The notes below the pieces were generated by a model. It did not search any database, was not told the DNA's origin, and saw nothing but the letters and a program-made list of their open reading frames with translations. From Paecilomyces variotii (Eukaryota), in assembly GCA_004022145.1 (NCBI GenBank), contig RCNU01000004.1: 64,000 nt of DNA; one strand, given 5' to 3'. Position numbers and translations under genes: made by a program. Positions 2,849 to 35,804 of this stretch are shown here, in pieces (the first letter of the stretch is position 1; every line of letters starts with the position of its first letter).

Positions 2849-4977
2849 ACAAATGTCACAGAAGTAGAGAGCGGCTTCAATCAGTAATGGCAAAATATTT
2901 ATGACGTCTTACTCTTCTAGCTAACAAATATGCCTTATCCAACTGGACACGCTTTCCGTGTCTTCTATATATCTTGGATATGATGTATATATTGACCACA
3001 ACTACTATATTTTTGTGTATGAATACTTCGGTTCCTAATTACTCATTATCTCTCACAATGTTGCTTTGTAGCGGCCTCAGATTAGTCTTCTTGTCAGTAA
3101 TGGATTCTTGCAATCCCGCGAAGCGATTCTGTTCGTTCAAAATTGGCAGCTCCAATTTCATGGAATATTGGGTTCCCGGCACTGTACAGTTCGTAGACAC
3201 GGAAACGATAATATCCAGATGCTAGACTCTACGATGCATAGGAATTCCGATAGTAGTACCGGGTTCTAAACTTCACGAGGTTATTTTTTTCCTTGGGTGA
3301 TTGATACTTAGTGTGATAAGGCCAGATGACGCTAAGAAAAGCAAGGTTGTGAGCACTGAGGGCCGCTGTGCAACCCACACTTTCCCCACGGTGGATTGCA
3401 CGAGTATATTACCTACCGGACGGCAAGAGAGTCCGATCACTCGAGTGATCTCTTTAGTATCTAGAGTCAGTATCCGATCTCTGGAGATGCTGCTATCCCA
3501 GGACATAGTGAGCGAATGAGAGCCTATACTCTTCCGGAACAAGAATCCTCCCTTCGCAGAGTACATCAGTTACTGCGCATTCCCCGCCAATATATCGCGC
3601 TATCTAAGTCTTGCTAGTAAACGTACAGATATATGGTAGAGTCGAGTAACTACACGCTACACGCGGAAGGATTCAGACGAACCACCGTCGTAGACTTGCC
3701 AGCAAGGAGCCCGGATCTGCAGCGGCTTGACTCGACTTGGAAGAAGCACGGGGACACTGTCAATCATGTTTCCCCGCTTGATTCAGCGGCCACAAGCGAA
3801 TAACAACGCCATCTCACAATTCCTGCGTGCTTTATCCAGCCATAGAGACATATGTTGAGCCAAAGGATGTCTCGTAGCTACTGCCTGGAACAGTCTGTGG
3901 GGAATAATGGGTGTTGTTTGCGTTCTTGACGCTTCTCAATCTGCGCCATATATGTACCAACCATTGTCTCTGAAGCGATTCTTTTGGGCTGCTCACCGTG
4001 GTCGTCTAGTTTCGAGATCTCACAACCTTCAAAGTGGAACAGATACGATGGGAGTAATGTAGCCGCGCGACCGTCACTACTGGCTAAACTAGTCCATGCA
4101 GTAGCCACGCTATGACGAGCAGATTTCCTTGTTTCATGCTTGCCTTGTTTTTCTCGAAGAAGTGTGGAATCCTCAGGCTGTCGAGATCAAGGTGACCGAA
4201 AACCAGACAACCGAAGGGAGGCATATGGAGTAGGGATCAGAACAGTGAAGCGTAGGACGGAGACTAGCACAGCCAGGTCGATCAGCGAGCCGTGTAGCCC
4301 AAAGGAGACCGAATTGCTGAGGGGGAGCGACGGTTGTTGCGGGTGAGCCGAATGTCGTGTGGGCGGGATGGAGGAGAGGCTGGAAGCTGATCAGGAGCCC
4401 GATGGAACCAACTCGATTATTATCTCTACTTCGTGTCTCTAACCGACCATCTTACTCCTATCATCTCAGAAAAGCAGCGTGCCATCCTCCTTGCTGGTCT
4501 CTCGACGTTTCGAGTCGGGCGTTGTTCCAGACAGCTTGGCAGTGCTGTATTCTATACCTCAGGTTCAACGCCCGGTTTCGTCCCGCGACGACGTATTTCC
4601 CACGTCCGGAGAGCTGTGATCTCATCTCGTTTCACTTCCACTCCATCGCTCAATTATCGCGACTCTAGACATCAGCGCAACACCGTGGACTTGCAGCTGC
4701 ATCGCTGAAACATTGCTCATTTGCGATCTCCGTCCTTACCGACTACGCAGGCAGCCGTTTAGCATCTCCTCCAGCTGCAGAGGCCCTCCTACTTAGTTCC
4801 CGGCCCCGCCCTTCCTCATATCGAGTGTACCCCCGCGTCCCATACCCAACGGCAGGCCGGTTGATAAAGGGAGATTGGCTCGTGGGAAAGGCAGATAACC
4901 GGCTTGATCAGTTGGCAGCAGAATAACTTACCCCCCAACCCCAGTCGGAAGTTATTTCTCGGCCGTGAAGCGCGGCG

Positions 4978-6308: not shown

Positions 6309-6401
6309 GGGGCGATGGCGTAGTTGGGAGCGCGTCAGACTGAAGTCAAACTTCGGCCATAGCAAATCTGAAGGTCGCCGGTTCGATCCCGGCTCACCCC
6401 A
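6309..6401 (+). tRNA. tRNA-Phe(GAA) with 20-nt intron (6346-6365)
   Basis: A-box TGGCGTAGTTGG; anticodon arm TCAGA-CT-GAA-G[intron]A-TCTGA; T-arm GCCGG-TTCGATC-CCGGC; acceptor GGGGCGA/TCACCCC plus discriminator A. Intron CTTC can pair with the anticodon. Confidence 0.93.
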
Positions 6402-6408
6402 CTTGGAA

Positions 6409-28133: not shown

Positions 28134-30973
28134 TGTTGGGTAGGTAGTTGGGAGGAGTGATGGAGATAGATTATGGTGTTGACTCTGCAGTTTGGAAGGG
28201 TTTGTTGTCGTCGTCGCTGGTTCTGTGCAGAGAAGCGTGGGAGAGAATATAAGGGAAGTAGAGGTGAGATGGGAAAGAGAAGAGAAGCGTGAAGCTGGAA
28301 GAACAAAAGCGGAGGTGGGGGTTGGAATGAAATAAATGCCTTATCGATAAGATCGGAGCCGTGACAGCGACGGGACTTATTATTGTTTAAGGAGAGCTTC
28401 CTCCACGCATCTATTATTAATTGCTGCTCTACATACCAATCCAGCCTATCTTTGGGCTTTTACGAACCGTTATGTTCTACCTAAGAGAATGGCTGGACTG
28501 CAGATTCTTGTTCGGACCTCAGAGTACAGGATGGTTCGAACAGTTCCCAAAGTCTCGAGTCGAGTTACCTAGGTAGCAGGCTAGCCTTCATTCAGACCAA
28601 GTAGTTAGCTATTAATTCGCGCCTGTTGACCGATGTAGCAGACACAAGCTATCTAGCTACTCGTGCTCGCTCTTTGGCACTGGTTGTGTGACGCTTTTAC
28701 TGCAGACACAACTCCCCCCAAGCTTCTCTCAGCTTTCTCAGGGGCAGCTTGATTCTCAACCTCGTCGATCTCCAGTCTCGCGGATCTACGCGAGGAACAC
28801 TCATTTCTCAAGATACGATGAGACGAATATCGCTTCTTTTTCGGCCGAAACCTGGAAGTCTCGCACCGGAAAAGCTGGCCTGCTTCGTTTTAGTGTAGAT
28901 CCTTATTTCACCTTGTACGAGTAATACGGGCAGCTAAGATAGATAATTTAGGTAGTTATTATAGCATCAGCGTCAACAAGTTATCAGATCCCAGATGCAG
29001 TCACGATGACTAGCTATTTCGAGGATCATCATTTGAGTAAAGCCCATATAACCTCATCCGGTTAGTTAGTGAAACACGAGAAGCCCCCTGACTCGAGATG
29101 GGACGCGTCTGAGTTATTATTAATGATAATAGTCAGGGACTTTCAGTTAATCCAATTAGGAAAAAAAGAGGCCATAGCATCAGGTTAACTAAACTGGGCA
29201 GTGGGTATATCGGGCAAAGGCATCGAAGCTATCTAATCCAGATTAGGAATTTGTAGATTTTTGATCTTGGTGCAGAAGATCGATAAGCATAACTAGCTTA
29301 GTCTATGTCTTGCATAAGTAATAATTAACATCTAGTTATGAACATAACATGTGGGTAAGCAGGTAACTACTAACTAACTACTAACTTAGTTATTATTACT
29401 CCGTACTTTGTGGATTCTTCTCTTGGGTCTCTTTCTAGAAGGTCGATCTAATAAGGGAACAGCTGAACAAGAATAATAACTGACGGGTTTTTAGTTAACT
29501 AACTAACTAACTACTCATTATGGTTAAATCCACTTTCGTGGCGGAGACATATACGCTAGACTGTGGAATAATAATAAGACCCGTCGTTCGGAAGGTGAAC
29601 GATACCTTTCCGACAAAGGAAGTACGCGTGGATGTTTCAGTGTTCTATAGTTCAGCCTCTTGGCTGACGCCCCTTTATGGATGAGCTTGAGAGAAGGGAT
29701 TCGGGGTACGCTCGGCTGCTATGTCTCAGGACACTAGTATTATAGACTGATTCAATCATGGAGTTGCGCTGGTGGGTGGTATATGTAGGTATGCTTTGTG
29801 TTAACTATAGCGGACATGCACGTTCTTGGATGGCATATGGTGATTCCTGGAATAGAATCCCATTTGTAGGACCAGGGTGTCTGCTTCACTACAGTTCAAG
29901 AAAGAGAAGATAGACTGCTGCTATGTATTCACTACTTCGTAAATGTGTCTATTGGAATTTCCATTCCGGAGGGATATCATACTGGGAGATATCATCCCTC
30001 GAGGCAAGACCAGACAGACACTTACTGCAAGTCAAGACTTGGGGCTATAGTACGAATACAGATAACTCAGACTCATTTTCGCTAAAATTAAGAAGGTAGG
30101 ATGATGTTTCAACTATCTGATAGCATAGTGACGAGCGGTTGGAAGACGAATTCCCCATATTCACGAGCTATCAAACCAGCCACCGTCTCTTCCCATACAT
30201 ACTGGCAGGCCTTGAGGGAGGAAATAATAATCGCCGTCACAACTCTACCATGAAATGCATACCTCAGCTGCGTGCTACTGATGACACGAAGTTCTGATGC
30301 AGAATCATGACAGATCCATTTCTGAACCGAGGAACAATTACGGGGCAGAACACCTCATTTCCAGTCTTCACAAAGAGCCACCCTATACAGAGCGAATAAC
30401 ACAGTAGAATATCAAAAAATAGAATCCTGACGAAGACACTCCGCACTCTCGAACGTAAACGAAACCCCGTGGAGGCGGTGGCTGGTGGTCAATACATCAT
30501 CACTTCTCCGCCGACCCGACTCCATGGGATAGCTACCGACTGACATCCATCATCAACGGCAGGACAACTGGACAGGAATGACACTTTGCAAACAGGAACC
30601 ATGAACCATGACCTTTATCACCAACACCAATGGAATCGTCAGGCACAGGCGTCTATCTGCCAGTTGTGTTCGTCGCCTCATCTTTCTTGCAGTGGAACAT
30701 GATGTCAAACCCGATCATCAGTTGAGTGCGCCTACGGCTTGCTCGCCACGGGCCAGAATATAAACGCGCTGCAAACCTTGGTGAAACAGATGAGGGATGC
30801 CGAGAAGGATGCTATCCATGGTCAGTCGACGACTTTGTTCTATCGATACAACAATCTGTGTCTTCTGATCTCACGCATTCCTTTTGCGTCTTGTTACAGA
30901 GCAAACAAGCATAATCCCATCAGATCTGTTTCGCGATTAAGATACTAGATATCCATCTTCGCAACATTCCAGA

Positions 30974-31555
30974 ATGACCGATACGTACAGCAGCTCGTCC
31001 TACTTCTACAGCTCCGCAACGAATACCAGCGACGGCTCCTCAACAACCGGTCACCGATATACAACGTCCTCCCACACCGATCCCAACGGAAATACCATCG
31101 TGCGCACAGCACATCAGGACCTCGGCGCGCCGGCCGTTATCGAAGAGCGCCGTTACGATCGGACAGGGCAGCAGTTACTGCTAGACACTGGCACCGGCGT
31201 GGCTGCCGGAACGAGACGAATCGAAGATCTAGGATCTTACGACGCAACAGGAGCGACAATGTCTGACCCAGGCACGACTTACGGTACTGAGAACGTTGGA
31301 ACAGCGGCAGATGCGACGGCGGGAACTGCATACGGCAGCGATACTGTCGGTCCCAGCACCAACGAATACGATCAGCATCTCGACTATGACACCGACGGAC
31401 ATAGGAGACATCATAGAGAAAAGCAGGATTCAGAAGGCCGCTGGTATCATCGAGATGTTGACCGGGAAAAGTCAGATCCCTCGAGCGGACATGTACATCG
31501 GGAATATTCGAATCCGAATACGGGGAGGTCTTCTCATACCGATTACGAGTTCTGA
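30974..31555 (+). CDS. Hydrophilic Thr/Gly/Asp-rich hypothetical protein (193 aa)
   Basis: Intact intronless ORF with coding-like composition and no TM segment. Confidence 0.75.
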   Translation: MTDTYSSSSYFYSSATNTSDGSSTTGHRYTTSSHTDPNGNTIVRTAHQDLGAPAVIEERRYDRTGQQLLLDTGTGVAAGTRRIEDLGSYDATGATMSDPGTTYGTENVGTAADATAGTAYGSDTVGPSTNEYDQHLDYDTDGHRRHHREKQDSEGRWYHRDVDREKSDPSSGHVHREYSNPNTGRSSHTDYEF

Positions 31556-31568
31556 GTTTGATTGAGAA

Positions 31569-32035
31569 CCGGCATGGACTGCGGCCACTCGTTTGGCACG
31601 CTCTACACTCTTTGGGTATATTATAAGAGTTTACGAATTATGAAGCCTTGAGCGTTGGTTTTGTCTTACGGAAGAAAAAAAAGAAAAAGAAAAAGAAAAA
31701 GACACGAATGACTAGGCATAGATTCTCGGCATTCCTTTGGTATACGAAGTTACGACTCATATGAAGCGTTAAGCGTCGCTTTTTCGCTTTTTGTTTTCAA
31801 TACCATGAAAAAACACAAAAACAACTTGCATCGACATTGGACACCATTTGGTACAGATGTTTACGAGCTATGAAGCATTTACCGCGTTGAGCGTTATTCT
31901 TATCTTCTATGGTACAAAAAGCAAAAAGACCGGCATGAAAATTGGACACTCGTTTGGTATATGATTTACGAGTCACGAAGCATGTAGCGTGGTTTCTACT
32001 TTTGTCTAAGAAAAATAAAAGCAAAAGGAAAAAAA
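31569..32035 (+). repeat. Four degenerate ~105-120-bp tandem units downstream of the stop codon
   Basis: Ordered motifs GCAT...TTTGG...TTACGA...GAAGC...AGCGT...T-tract...A-tract recur; TTACGA at 31631, 31750, 31861 and 31966. Confidence 0.8.
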
Positions 32036-32545
32036 TGTTCGCTCGAGAAATGAAGACCAAGCGGGCATTGCTGTGCGATTTTTTTGTCTCTTTGGAAGCA
32101 GTGTTTATAGTTTACAAGAATGCCTACAAATGACTTCGATCGATTTTAGAACCAAATTGATACAGCAGCCGCTATAGTTTACAACGTAATCTGAACGAAT
32201 CCAAGTAGACTTAGAGAGCGATCCATTATACAGTAAATACCAATTGCATGTTGATACTATGTATGAAGCGTGTTTGTTATTTGTATAGCTGGTAAAGTCA
32301 TGGCAGAACATCTCTCATATATTGTCGCGTCAGTCATGATAGTCCTTTCAAACGCCCAAAGTGCAAAAATATGTGCATGTTGTAGATCAATAGCATCCAT
32401 GTATCTGTGAGCACATGTCGGATGGATTTGAGATAGGTATTGGCATGGGAGAGACGACCGTCTGTGCTTTAATTGTGCATCTTCTGCGTGTCGTCAATAA
32501 ACCAAGGCGCTTGCACCGAAAGAACTATATTGCCAAAAGTTATTC

Positions 32546-33859
32546 TCAGACTCTGAGCCTGCCATACGTCAAGCGTTCTCTGATCTTCGTGAACAAGCCT
32601 GGCAACTGGTAACTCCAGTGGCACAGCATGCCGGCAACGAATCCGATAGCATCGTTCTTGAATCCAACGAGCAGGCCAACGGTCACAATCATAACAGTCC
32701 ATCTCTTCTTGCGCTCATAGTCAGTGAGAATCGGACCAATCGCCTGTTCTGAGTCTCCAATGATACCCGGAGCCTTGCCAGCAAGGTCTCGAGCGCCTGT
32801 TGTGTTCAGGCTTTCACCCACACTGGCTAGTTCGAGGCCCGCAGCAATGACCATGACGCCCAATAGAGCTGATGGAAATTGCTTCAGCAGACTGACAAGG
32901 GATTCACCAAAGAACAGGCCAACTATCATCTTTAGGGCTCCCAAGATGATGATGCTGGCGCCAGAACGGGCTCCAAACCGGTACTGGGCCGCCAACCCGC
33001 CAGATCCGTGACAGACAGGCATAGCACCAAACCAGCAACCGAAAAGGTTCATTCCTGCGACACTGAGACCGATAGAAGTAATCGAAGGTGTTTGAACACC
33101 CGGCAACAGGTCCGCTGCGAGGTGGACGACTGCGATCACAGAATTAAGCGTCGTAAGCGGGAGCTGGCCAATGCCAGCACCAATTGCGCCTGTTTTCCAG
33201 TCGCTGCCTACTGGGATAGTCATATGCGGTCTCCAGAACTCCAGTGATGGGAGACTGCCCGATTGCGCAGTGACAATGATGGCGAAGACCAAGCCAACCG
33301 CGAAAACGATTAGAGCATATGGCACAGTGCGATATGAATTCGTGATGATTAGGAATAAAAACGCAACAATAGCCCAGATCAAATTGTCTGCCCAGGATGG
33401 ATAGATCCATCCCAACGAGGCGATTAGTTTTCCGGCTGACGCGATGATGAGGGACAGGCCGGCTCCTAGCTGGATACCCTTGACCACTGGGATCGGAATG
33501 ACATCTGAAAACCAGCGTAGAAGACCAGTAACACTGAAGACAAGAATACAAGCGGCCACAAAAACGCCTGCGGCCGCGATTTCGCCGTTGCTGAAAGACC
33601 TGGCAATAGCAACGGCGGCGATCGCCTTCATAGGCTGCACGGGCAGCGGGATGCCAAAGAAAAGCCCGGTGAGTATATTGAAAACCCCCGAAAAGATAAG
33701 AGTGCTGGACAAGGAAATCGTGCCATTCAGAGCCAGAGCAATGGCAATAGGAAGGAAGGTGCCCAGATCCCCAAGAGCGCCAGAGATCTCAGATACTGGC
33801 CGCGACTTTAGTTTCCGGAGGTTGCGGGCGGAGATCTGGCGAAACGTGCTGGCCGCCAT
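32546..33859 (-). CDS. MOT1-family molybdate/sulfate transporter
   Basis: SEISGALGDLGTFLP, PLPVQPMKAIAA, GQLPLTTLNS and GAMPVCHGSGGLAAQYRFGARSG signature motifs; multiple TM helices. Confidence 0.92.
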   Translation of the reverse strand: MAASTFRQISARNLRKLKSRPVSEISGALGDLGTFLPIAIALALNGTISLSSTLIFSGVFNILTGLFFGIPLPVQPMKAIAAVAIARSFSNGEIAAAGVFVAACILVFSVTGLLRWFSDVIPIPVVKGIQLGAGLSLIIASAGKLIASLGWIYPSWADNLIWAIVAFLFLIITNSYRTVPYALIVFAVGLVFAIIVTAQSGSLPSLEFWRPHMTIPVGSDWKTGAIGAGIGQLPLTTLNSVIAVVHLAADLLPGVQTPSITSIGLSVAGMNLFGCWFGAMPVCHGSGGLAAQYRFGARSGASIIILGALKMIVGLFFGESLVSLLKQFPSALLGVMVIAAGLELASVGESLNTTGARDLAGKAPGIIGDSEQAIGPILTDYERKKRWTVMIVTVGLLVGFKNDAIGFVAGMLCHWSYQLPGLFTKIRERLTYGRLRV

Positions 33860-34735
33860 GGCGGGAACGAGGCGCGGGGATAATCAACAAAGAGATGCAA
33901 TATTGGACAGGTCTATCCCTGATTATGCTGAGGATGGAGCCTCTGAGAATACACGACGGCAAGGGGTTGTTAAAGAGACTGGAGAAAGCTACCACCTCGC
34001 GATCAAAGGATGAAGGAGAATGAGATGATGCATGCACCTCCGCGGAGAACTTGATCAGCGAGATCTAAGATCTTGGCTCCACTAAGTAGTTAGCAATGCA
34101 GCAAATGGCCGTCACACGATCACCACAATCCTGAATCCGATCGACCTGGAGTCTGAATCAGCATTATCTACTATCATTTACAAGTTACAACCTGCTGGTG
34201 CTGTAGAAATTCCATGTGTACAATGTCAGGGACCCCATCTAGCCGACAACCAGTTATGACGGTAAGAAGCGGACGATATCGTCACCCACTTACGACCACT
34301 CGACCCAAAAGAAGGATTCTCCAGCTTGATCTCTCCAGATCTGACATAGAACAAAGACTGACGGGCTTTGATGGCCTGGCTTTGTTATAATCGTCGAGGA
34401 CTGAGCCCCCTAAAGCCACCTTCTTTCGGAACAAAGCCCAAGAACGAACTGAGACCTTGCAGAATGGAGTTTTTGATGGGACTCTCAGTCGTTCGATGGC
34501 CTCGAGAGGTATTGAAATTCACTCACTTATGGTTACAAGCGGCGCTTTTCCATCAAGTCACTTTTCTTTCACTGCCCAAGTGATCTGTCGCCCCTTCCCA
34601 ACAGATTGAGACAGGGGTCATCTCTGATCCTATTCTTCGGTGGTTTCACTTGCGGTGCTGCTCTGCAAACTTCTCGTGAATCAAGTCCATATTGAAGCAT
34701 CTCATCTCCCTCATTTGACCGATTCAACTGCAGAT

Positions 34736-35804
34736 ATGGCTTCTACTGCCATTATGGATGAGCGCTCGGGACTGAAGCACTTTGAACGTGACAACCCGAT
34801 GGCTCACTCGAAACCTACTTTGGTTCTTGTCCATGGGGGCTGGCAAGGGCCGTCTTTATGGACCTACGTGATCCCTCTGTTAGAAAGAGCCGGCTACGCA
34901 ACGTACCCAGTGACCCTGGTGTCCCCAGACAGCGACCCTCCAGTCGAGGACTTCACAGCTGACGTCGAAGTTGTTAGAAGAGCCGTCGATACACTACTCG
35001 AGTGTGGCAAAGATGTTATATTAGTGCTATTTTCTTATGCAGGTTACGTGGGATGCGAGGCACTCAAGTCATTCCATGATGAACAAAGTACTCCTCTGCA
35101 GAATGCGGCGCAGAATACGGGTCCGGATGGAGGCGTCGACAAAAAGTCTGCAAAGAAAACTGATCTTCCATCATGGTTTGCCAGACCTCGACGCGGAAAG
35201 ATCTTGCATATCGCCTTTATAGCGTCGTATATTGTCGCACCGGGAATGACACTTTGGAGCCCAAGGAAAGGCGACTGCCTCCCTGGAATGGAGAATAAGG
35301 TAAGCATCCGCAAAGTACATGTTATCTATTACGACCGGCATATAGTGAGAAGCAAGGGTCCCATCGACACCACAGCACATACTAACAGGGAGATTAGGAC
35401 GGAGTGGTGCGCGTTCTGGATGGGCCAGAACGTTTCTTCAGTGACTTGCCGCGGCCGATTGCTGAGTTCTGGGCCACAAAGCTCAGGAGCCAACCTATAA
35501 AGTATGTGTATACACTTTGCCAGGTCTTGCCTCGAATGCGTCAAGTTGTTTGCTAATAGTCCAAAGGTCCTTTTATTCCAGATTTACCTACCCGGCTTAT
35601 CTCTACTACCCGACCTCTTATCTCGCTTGCATTGATGACAAGGCCCTTGCATACAAAATCCAAGACCGTATGGCCAAGCTTGCTAAGATCGATCCGGATA
35701 GGGTTGTGAGAGTGAGGTCTGGCCACATGGTGATGGTCAGTCAGCCGATGGCTGTAGCCAAGTTCTTGCGTCAAGCGGCAGGAGAGACATTCAGCGTTCT
35801 TTAA
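34736..35804 (+). CDS. Alpha/beta hydrolase (methylesterase-like), 3 exons
   Basis: LVLVHGGWQGP, nucleophile FSYAG, PTSYLACIDDKAL and SGHMVMVSQP; introns near 35300-35397 and 35503-35567. Start could instead be 34799. Confidence 0.8.

Follow-up and report, generated by a model that had tools for sequence, protein, structure and literature searches.

A diverged four-unit tandem array in the 3' UTR of a Paecilomyces variotii gene, probably an old and near-neutral duplication

The multimerised elements known from fungal 3' UTRs are sites of 5 to 10 nt or small hairpins, and they are conserved across species. The array described here, which lies behind the gene for a 193-aa protein in Paecilomyces variotii, resembles clustered Puf, Whi3, or Smaug sites in that short motifs recur in a fixed order; unlike them, it repeats whole units of ~110 nt and is missing from orthologues. 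Yeast-type polyadenylation signals combine a UAUAUA-type efficiency element, an A-rich positioning element, and U-rich flanks. The tandem polyadenylation signals and fail-safe terminators of yeast offer a second parallel, since the array also presents repeated U-rich/A-rich segments after a strong gene that faces a convergent neighbour, with falling RNA coverage; however, canonical efficiency and positioning elements are for the most part absent from it. Polycistronic fungal snoRNA clusters share with the array their tandem units of ~100 nt in a transcribed region, whereas in the array neither C/D boxes nor a fold nor an Rfam match was found, and orthologues do not conserve it. With decayed minisatellites and tandem segmental duplications, it has in common head-to-tail copies of ~100 bp, lineage specificity, small indels between strains, a non-coding nature, and the lack of a structure signal. 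It departs from the usual decayed minisatellite in that its copies are unusually old, with an identity too low for detection by Tandem Repeats Finder, in that an extremely abundant mRNA carries the whole of it in its 3' UTR, and in that its conservation is mildly block-wise. A literature search on tandem repeats in fungal 3' UTRs brought up nothing relevant among the titles and abstract openings.

Four homologous units in a transcribed 3' UTR

We analyzed a window of 64 kb (64,000 nt) of P. variotii DNA, in which positions 31566 to 32040 are made up of four head-to-tail units of 146, 115, 102, and 112 bp. The array starts 13 to 14 bp past the TGA (31553 to 31555) that ends the coding sequence of the 193-aa hydrophilic protein (plus strand, 30974 to 31555). 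A first-pass annotation of this DNA, made from the letters alone, had placed the start 14 bp after the stop and had described four units with the same ordered short motifs and no credible open reading frame, all of which our analysis confirmed. Each unit holds one copy of the ordered chain GCAT..TTTGG..TTACGA..GAAGC..AGCGT, with starts at 31572, 31716, 31828, and 31933; no fifth copy was found on either strand of the window, and 200 Markov-1 random windows contained none. TTACGA stands at 31631, 31750, 31861, and 31966, with the claimed spacing of 119, 111, and 105 bp; the plus strand of the 64-kb window has 13 copies of this hexamer in all.

When the four units were aligned with MAFFT, 36 of the 87 ungapped columns were invariant and pairwise identity was 56 to 69%; the divergence was star-like, with a transition-to-transversion ratio of ~1:1. 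Profiles built from three units recovered the fourth with E values of 5.3e-13, 3.7e-9, 2.3e-10, and 2e-12 for units 1 to 4, respectively, while the next-best match of these profiles anywhere in the window had an E value of 0.09 or worse. Because each omitted unit is recovered in this way, the homology of the units does not depend on circular scoring. Two or more homologous head-to-tail copies make a tandem repeat, and here there are four, side by side. Tandem Repeats Finder did not report the array, as is expected for copies less than 70% alike.

The units, all on the plus strand, differ in their private features. Unit 1 (31566 to 31711) carries a 20-bp insert (~31578 to 31597) that gives it a second TTTGG, together with an (AAAAAG)4 microsatellite at 31678 to 31702. 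Unit 2 (31712 to 31826) has the sole clear T-tract/A-tract hairpin, formed by 31788 to 31797 with 31812 to 31821, and unit 3 (31827 to 31928) has a 9-bp insert inside its GAAGC block. Unit 4 (31929 to 32040) is the one whose core finds a counterpart in an orthologous 3' UTR (see below). An A-rich tract closes every unit (31671 to 31703, 31808 to 31822, 31916 to 31928, and 32008 to 32036). Further units were considered and dropped. Where the coding sequence ends, a "unit 0" (31543, TTACGAGTTCTGA) looked plausible by eye and in the repeat search, as did a "unit 5" at 32044 to 32090; the a-core, b-core, and b-full profiles matched neither of them. A possible extra half-unit at 32257 reached a sub-profile E value of only 6.3.

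To place the array in a transcript, assembled contigs of four public runs (X2, X12, X15, and X16) were compared with positions 30600 to 33000; runs X8 to X11, X13, X14, and X17 to X20, whose word share was at most 0.47, were left out of the evidence. X16 is a food-fermentation metatranscriptome, and X2, which comprises 5.6 Mb of contigs, is RNA by its guessed label only. The summed contig depth in X16 was 4e3 to 4e5 over 30762 to 32219 (2e4 to 4e5 up to ~32140 and 4.5e3 in 32139 to 32219) and 44 or less past 32220; as these are contigs and not reads, the depths leave strand and expression level unmeasured and cannot rank parts of one gene. Loose ends of pure A in X16 contigs behind 32148 and 32149 mark a plus-strand poly(A) site, and among the loose ends listed, poly(A) occurs only there, distal to the array. 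X2 contigs 31319 to 31754 and 31729 to 32226 showed no differences from the window. No joints were reported in the contigs over 30600 to 33000, and therefore no splicing is reported. Since coverage is contiguous with the coding sequence and stops at the poly(A) site (32148/32149), the array lies inside a 3' UTR of ~590 nt that belongs to the 193-aa gene (plus strand, 31556 to 32149, from X16 and X2 contigs, with the distal poly(A) site at ~32148 to 32151). The 1e4-fold depth contrast with the flank favors real expression of this gene, though DNA can contaminate RNA libraries. Thus, the suggestion that the units sit in the 3' UTR of the small gene was correct, and an untranscribed array, which the first-pass annotation had named as a finding that would speak against a function, is not what we see. 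Separately, two X16 contigs depart from the window behind 31432, inside the coding sequence, and continue with ~18 to 20 unrelated letters and no reported joint; a chimera in the assembly, a different strain, or rare splicing could account for this.

The neighbour downstream is a convergent gene for a MOT1-type molybdate transporter of 437 aa (minus strand, 32546 to 33859; Pfam PF16983, E value of 2e-62). Its mRNA has a 3' UTR at 32206 to 32545 (minus strand), as judged from X2 contig 32206 to 32638, in which 12 loose T before 32206 represent the poly(A) end. The two convergent mRNAs therefore end at poly(A) sites that are 57 bp apart (32148/32149 versus 32206). X2 contig 31729 to 32226 spans both sites, and hence at least one of the two genes is read through to some extent.

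Divergence between units, strains, and orthologous loci

The first-pass annotation had taken the retention of motifs amid decayed linkers as a sign of selection. Column permutation was used to evaluate the clustering of invariant columns, and the fractions of permutations that attained the observed value were 0.014 for runs of at least 4, 0.005 for runs of at least 5, 0.002 for columns in such runs, 0.023 for the sum of squared runs, and 0.19 for the longest run. Neutral evolution was simulated by letting four copies diverge at uniform rates, indels included, along a star tree, followed by MAFFT realignment (150 replicates per setting). At d = 0.20, where the share of invariant columns was matched, the corresponding five fractions were 0.033, 0.04, 0.013, 0.147, and 0.22; higher values of d left too few invariant columns for comparison. 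Invariant columns form more runs of at least 4 than expected, a real but marginal effect, and the run statistics were picked after the data had been seen. The claimed pattern holds for three of the statistics against the neutral simulation (P = 0.013 to 0.04) and fails for the other two (P = 0.15 and 0.22).

Over 2401 bp, a second haplotype, represented by X12 and X15 contigs, showed 43 substitutions relative to the window, along with 22 gap letters. The regional counts cover the 40 substitutions listed, with 6 rows outside that listing. Among those listed, the array had 10 substitutions in 467 positions (2.1%), the 193-aa coding sequence 5 in 582 (0.9%; third codon positions, 4 of 194, 2.1%), the rest of the 3' UTR 1 in 113 (0.9%), and the gap between the poly(A) sites together with the MOT1 3' UTR 16 in 397 (4.0%). 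The array did not differ from third codon positions (Fisher P = 1.0), and its lower divergence relative to the MOT1 3' UTR and gap was not significant (P = 0.11). One of the 10 SNPs fell in an invariant column, versus 3.1 expected (P = 0.14); this SNP, 31753 C>T, turns the TTACGA of unit 2 into TTATGA in the second strain. That strain keeps all four units, with 4 small indels of 1 to 5 bp in the array, so unit copy number does not vary between the two haplotypes compared. None of the strain and clustering tests shows constraint, and mild constraint is still compatible with them. Most of the array sequence appears to evolve at about the neutral rate. The first-pass annotation had also conceded that motifs no more conserved than under neutral decay would count against selection, and this is in part what was found: the array diverges like third codon positions, and the clustering is marginal. 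Altogether, the case for selection on the array motifs is weak.

To obtain orthologous loci, the family alignment of the 193-aa protein was used in a single scan of metagenome contigs, which gave five loci, L001 to L005. L001 and L002 are identical to each other and share 58% protein identity with the 193-aa protein, L003 shares 49% and is nearest to a Penicillium protein, and L004 shares 47%. L005 is cut off inside the gene, and the 3' regions compared are those of L001 to L004, three of them distinct. The convergent MOT1 orthologue is kept in the equivalent relative place in L001 (77% identity) and L004 (73% identity), with an intergenic spacer of 628 bp in L001 and 147 bp in L004 versus 990 bp in the window. 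No tandem or direct-repeat array was found downstream of the gene in L001 to L004, and the unit profile had no match in the orthologous loci better than an E value of 9.2. Because these loci are without it, the array is confined to the Paecilomyces lineage or, at the least, missing where protein identity is 58% or lower. Absence from orthologues was another finding that the first-pass annotation had set against its own proposal, and at the loci reached it is indeed what we observed.

A partial exception comes from L004. Positions 4635 to 4663 of this locus, in its 147-nt spacer/3' UTR, read ATGTGTTTGACGATACAAGAAGCATGTAG and are identical to the unit 4 core at 22 of 29 positions. The match (TTTGACGA..GAAGCATGTAG) starts 77 nt past the stop codon, versus 76 nt for the first TTACGA of the window. 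Its score was reached by 1 of 300 shuffles and by 1 of 1194 real 147-nt windows, which corresponds to a P value of ~0.003 per locus, with three loci tested. An extra base splits its TTACGA, and AGCGT is absent. The L001 3' region contains no unit-core match (score of 17, null mean of 15.8), and neither does that of L003, so that one of the three distinct orthologous 3' regions carries a core-like stretch when the unit core is viewed as a conserved element of the gene family's 3' UTR. Six of the 11 exactly matching bases (ATGTAG) fall in places that are variable, both among the units and between the strains, and part of the match is therefore chance. The L004 stretch may represent a single ancestral copy of the unit core, in which case the core could be older than the array and under constraint.

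Competing explanations for the array

We consider it probable, with moderate confidence, that the array is an old, lineage-specific, near-neutral four-fold tandem duplication of 3' UTR sequence. In the Paecilomyces lineage, slippage or unequal exchange would have turned a single piece of ~105 to 120 bp in the proximal 3' UTR into four tandem copies, which would then have drifted to their present 56 to 69% identity. Copy number would now be fixed because the copies are too diverged to recombine. The main effect would have been a longer 3' UTR, of ~590 nt in place of an estimated 130 nt. In addition, the repeated U-rich/A-rich unit ends probably supply extra cleavage/polyadenylation sites inside the array, at which a weak hint in the contig depth points: along the array, the summed X16 depth steps down from ~400k to 189k and 76k and then to 9 to 30k. 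This stepwise depth is a poor measure because the contig depths of mixed strains are summed, and it is compatible with internal 3' ends.

The array might instead be a multimerised 3' UTR module under selection. Each unit could hold a site for an RNA-binding protein in its core (TTTACGA..ATGAAGC..AGCGT), with four copies raising the stability, localisation, or translational control of an abundant mRNA. A 3' UTR location, in an mRNA whose metatranscriptome contig depth is ~1e5, would suit such a module, as would the block-wise invariant columns in three of the five simulation statistics, the single strain SNP among 10 that hit an invariant column, and the L004 core match. However, the array is absent from the three distinct orthologous loci, of which the closer L001 is without even a core match; the array diverges between strains like third codon positions; the second strain has lost the TTACGA of unit 2; and the L004 match is in part chance. 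Nor does a known motif fit: positions 31556 to 32150 contain no Puf3 site and one Whi3-type TGCAT. We regard this module as unlikely, while keeping it in view. We judge distinctly less probable a version in which the units act as selected tandem 3'-end or termination modules, that is, as a fail-safe terminator against read-through into the convergent, weakly expressed molybdate-transporter gene. A U-rich and then an A-rich segment closes each unit, X16 depth drops ~10,000-fold (4e5 to 44) from unit 2 to 32220 in steps that roughly match the unit ends, and the convergent mRNA ends are just 57 bp apart. Against this, the blocks best conserved among the units are not polyadenylation elements. When 31556 to 32150 was scanned with the yeast consensus elements, TATATA was found in no unit, the looser TAYAYR occurred twice, AATAAA occurred once, in unit 4, and A-rich tracts were present in all four units. 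Moreover, the orthologous locus L004 copes with a spacer of 147 bp, the listed poly(A) ends lie only distal to the array, and contig depth cannot rank parts of one gene. The broader proposition that the unit core (UUUACGA..GAAGC..) is an ancestral 3' UTR regulatory element, multimerised four-fold in Paecilomyces under selection as a protein-binding platform or as a fail-safe termination array shielding the MOT1 gene, likewise seems to us unlikely. Were this minority reading true, the locus would offer a natural experiment of one versus four copies on 3' UTR modules or terminators in filamentous fungi.

Two further explanations fare much worse. The first-pass annotation had offered a processed small-RNA array as one possible meaning, and it is true that the region is transcribed and that tandem units of 100 to 145 nt resemble fungal polycistronic snoRNA clusters. 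Nonetheless, the array had no Rfam match at E values up to 10 (two weak matches in 29000 to 35000 both lie elsewhere), neither a C box (RUGAUGA) nor a D box (CUGA) was found on either strand of 31556 to 32150, and the array is absent from orthologues. Folding was no better than that of shuffles, with z-scores of -0.98 to +0.48 in the eight unit/strand folds and +1.06 for the whole 3' UTR. The consensus structure that had been proposed as a check did not materialize either: RNAalifold on the aligned units gave 2 invariant pairs, none with covariation, at -0.9 kcal/mol, and no covariation-backed conserved structure of the kind that marks a structured cis-regulatory RNA was found. The pairing of T-tract and A-tract reported in the first pass is real in unit 2, with 10-nt arms that are 90% complementary; it is not common to the units, because the alignment gives no consensus pair at that place. 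Neither a structured RNA nor a small-RNA array is present here, and the idea of clustered genes for small RNAs (snoRNA-like or of another type) that are cut out of the transcript is close to refuted. The earlier statement that no named element has this layout stands as far as RNA families are concerned.

Head-to-tail insertions of a short retroposon (SINE-like, with A-tailed copies) or of another mobile element are very improbable as well. An A-rich tract does end every unit, and TTACGAGTC, which we take by eye to bear a faint likeness to a tRNA B box, was counted in favor of a retroposon. ARAGORN and Rfam, however, detected no tRNA likeness in the array, which speaks against a tRNA or SINE origin; the unit profiles found no further copy within the 64-kb window; and there are no terminal inverted repeats. 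No inverted pairs flank single units as the TIR of a MITE or DNA transposon would, in agreement with the first pass, which had seen neither TIR nor TSD. The sole flanking inverted pair, of 13 nt (31480 to 31492 with 32035 to 32047), brackets the whole array; its arms are 12/13 complementary, and both contain CTCGAG. One arm lies in the coding sequence and the other directly after unit 4, and the pair is probably due to chance, since by our own estimate ~0.2 such pairs are expected. RIP was also considered as the cause of the divergence. Of 21 singleton columns, 3 were C>T or G>A versus 8 T>C or A>G, with no directional bias, and RIP was set aside as the cause. The process itself is reported as experimentally demonstrated in P. 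variotii (PMC6300479).

The host gene and neighbouring features

Read as a near-neutral duplication, the array has little consequence, for it adds a further lineage-specific case to the tandem duplications of fungal 3' UTRs. The 193-aa gene itself may repay study, because it belongs to an uncharacterised Eurotiales-wide family and its mRNA is among the deepest covered in a food-fermentation metatranscriptome, where its contig depth of ~1e5 is far above the 10 to 44 of the neighbouring gene. The protein matched no Pfam family. Its 76 homologues, none of which has a name, come from Paecilomyces, Penicillium, Aspergillus, Talaromyces, and Thermomyces; the best is a hypothetical protein of P. variotii with 98% identity, and a P. 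lecythidis homologue falls in the same 90% cluster. The closest relative from another species, P0002 from a Logan contig, is 81% identical. In the family alignment, ~65 N-terminal residues are strongly conserved and the remainder is not. The ESM Atlas returned no informative neighbour (best score of 0.89, "hypothetical protein"), and a literature search under five accession or locus names brought up no mention of these names.

Two features outside the array emerged from the Rfam search. At 32234 to 32372 (plus strand), in the 3' UTR region of the transporter, there is a sub-threshold match to Afu_198, a C/D snoRNA of A. fumigatus (17.6 bits versus a gathering score of 40; E value of 5.3), which is most likely due to chance. 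The sole match in the window at gathering score is a tRNA gene at 6309 to 6402 (plus strand; 54.3 bits), for which ARAGORN gives no anticodon; at ~93 bp, this gene probably has an intron inside.
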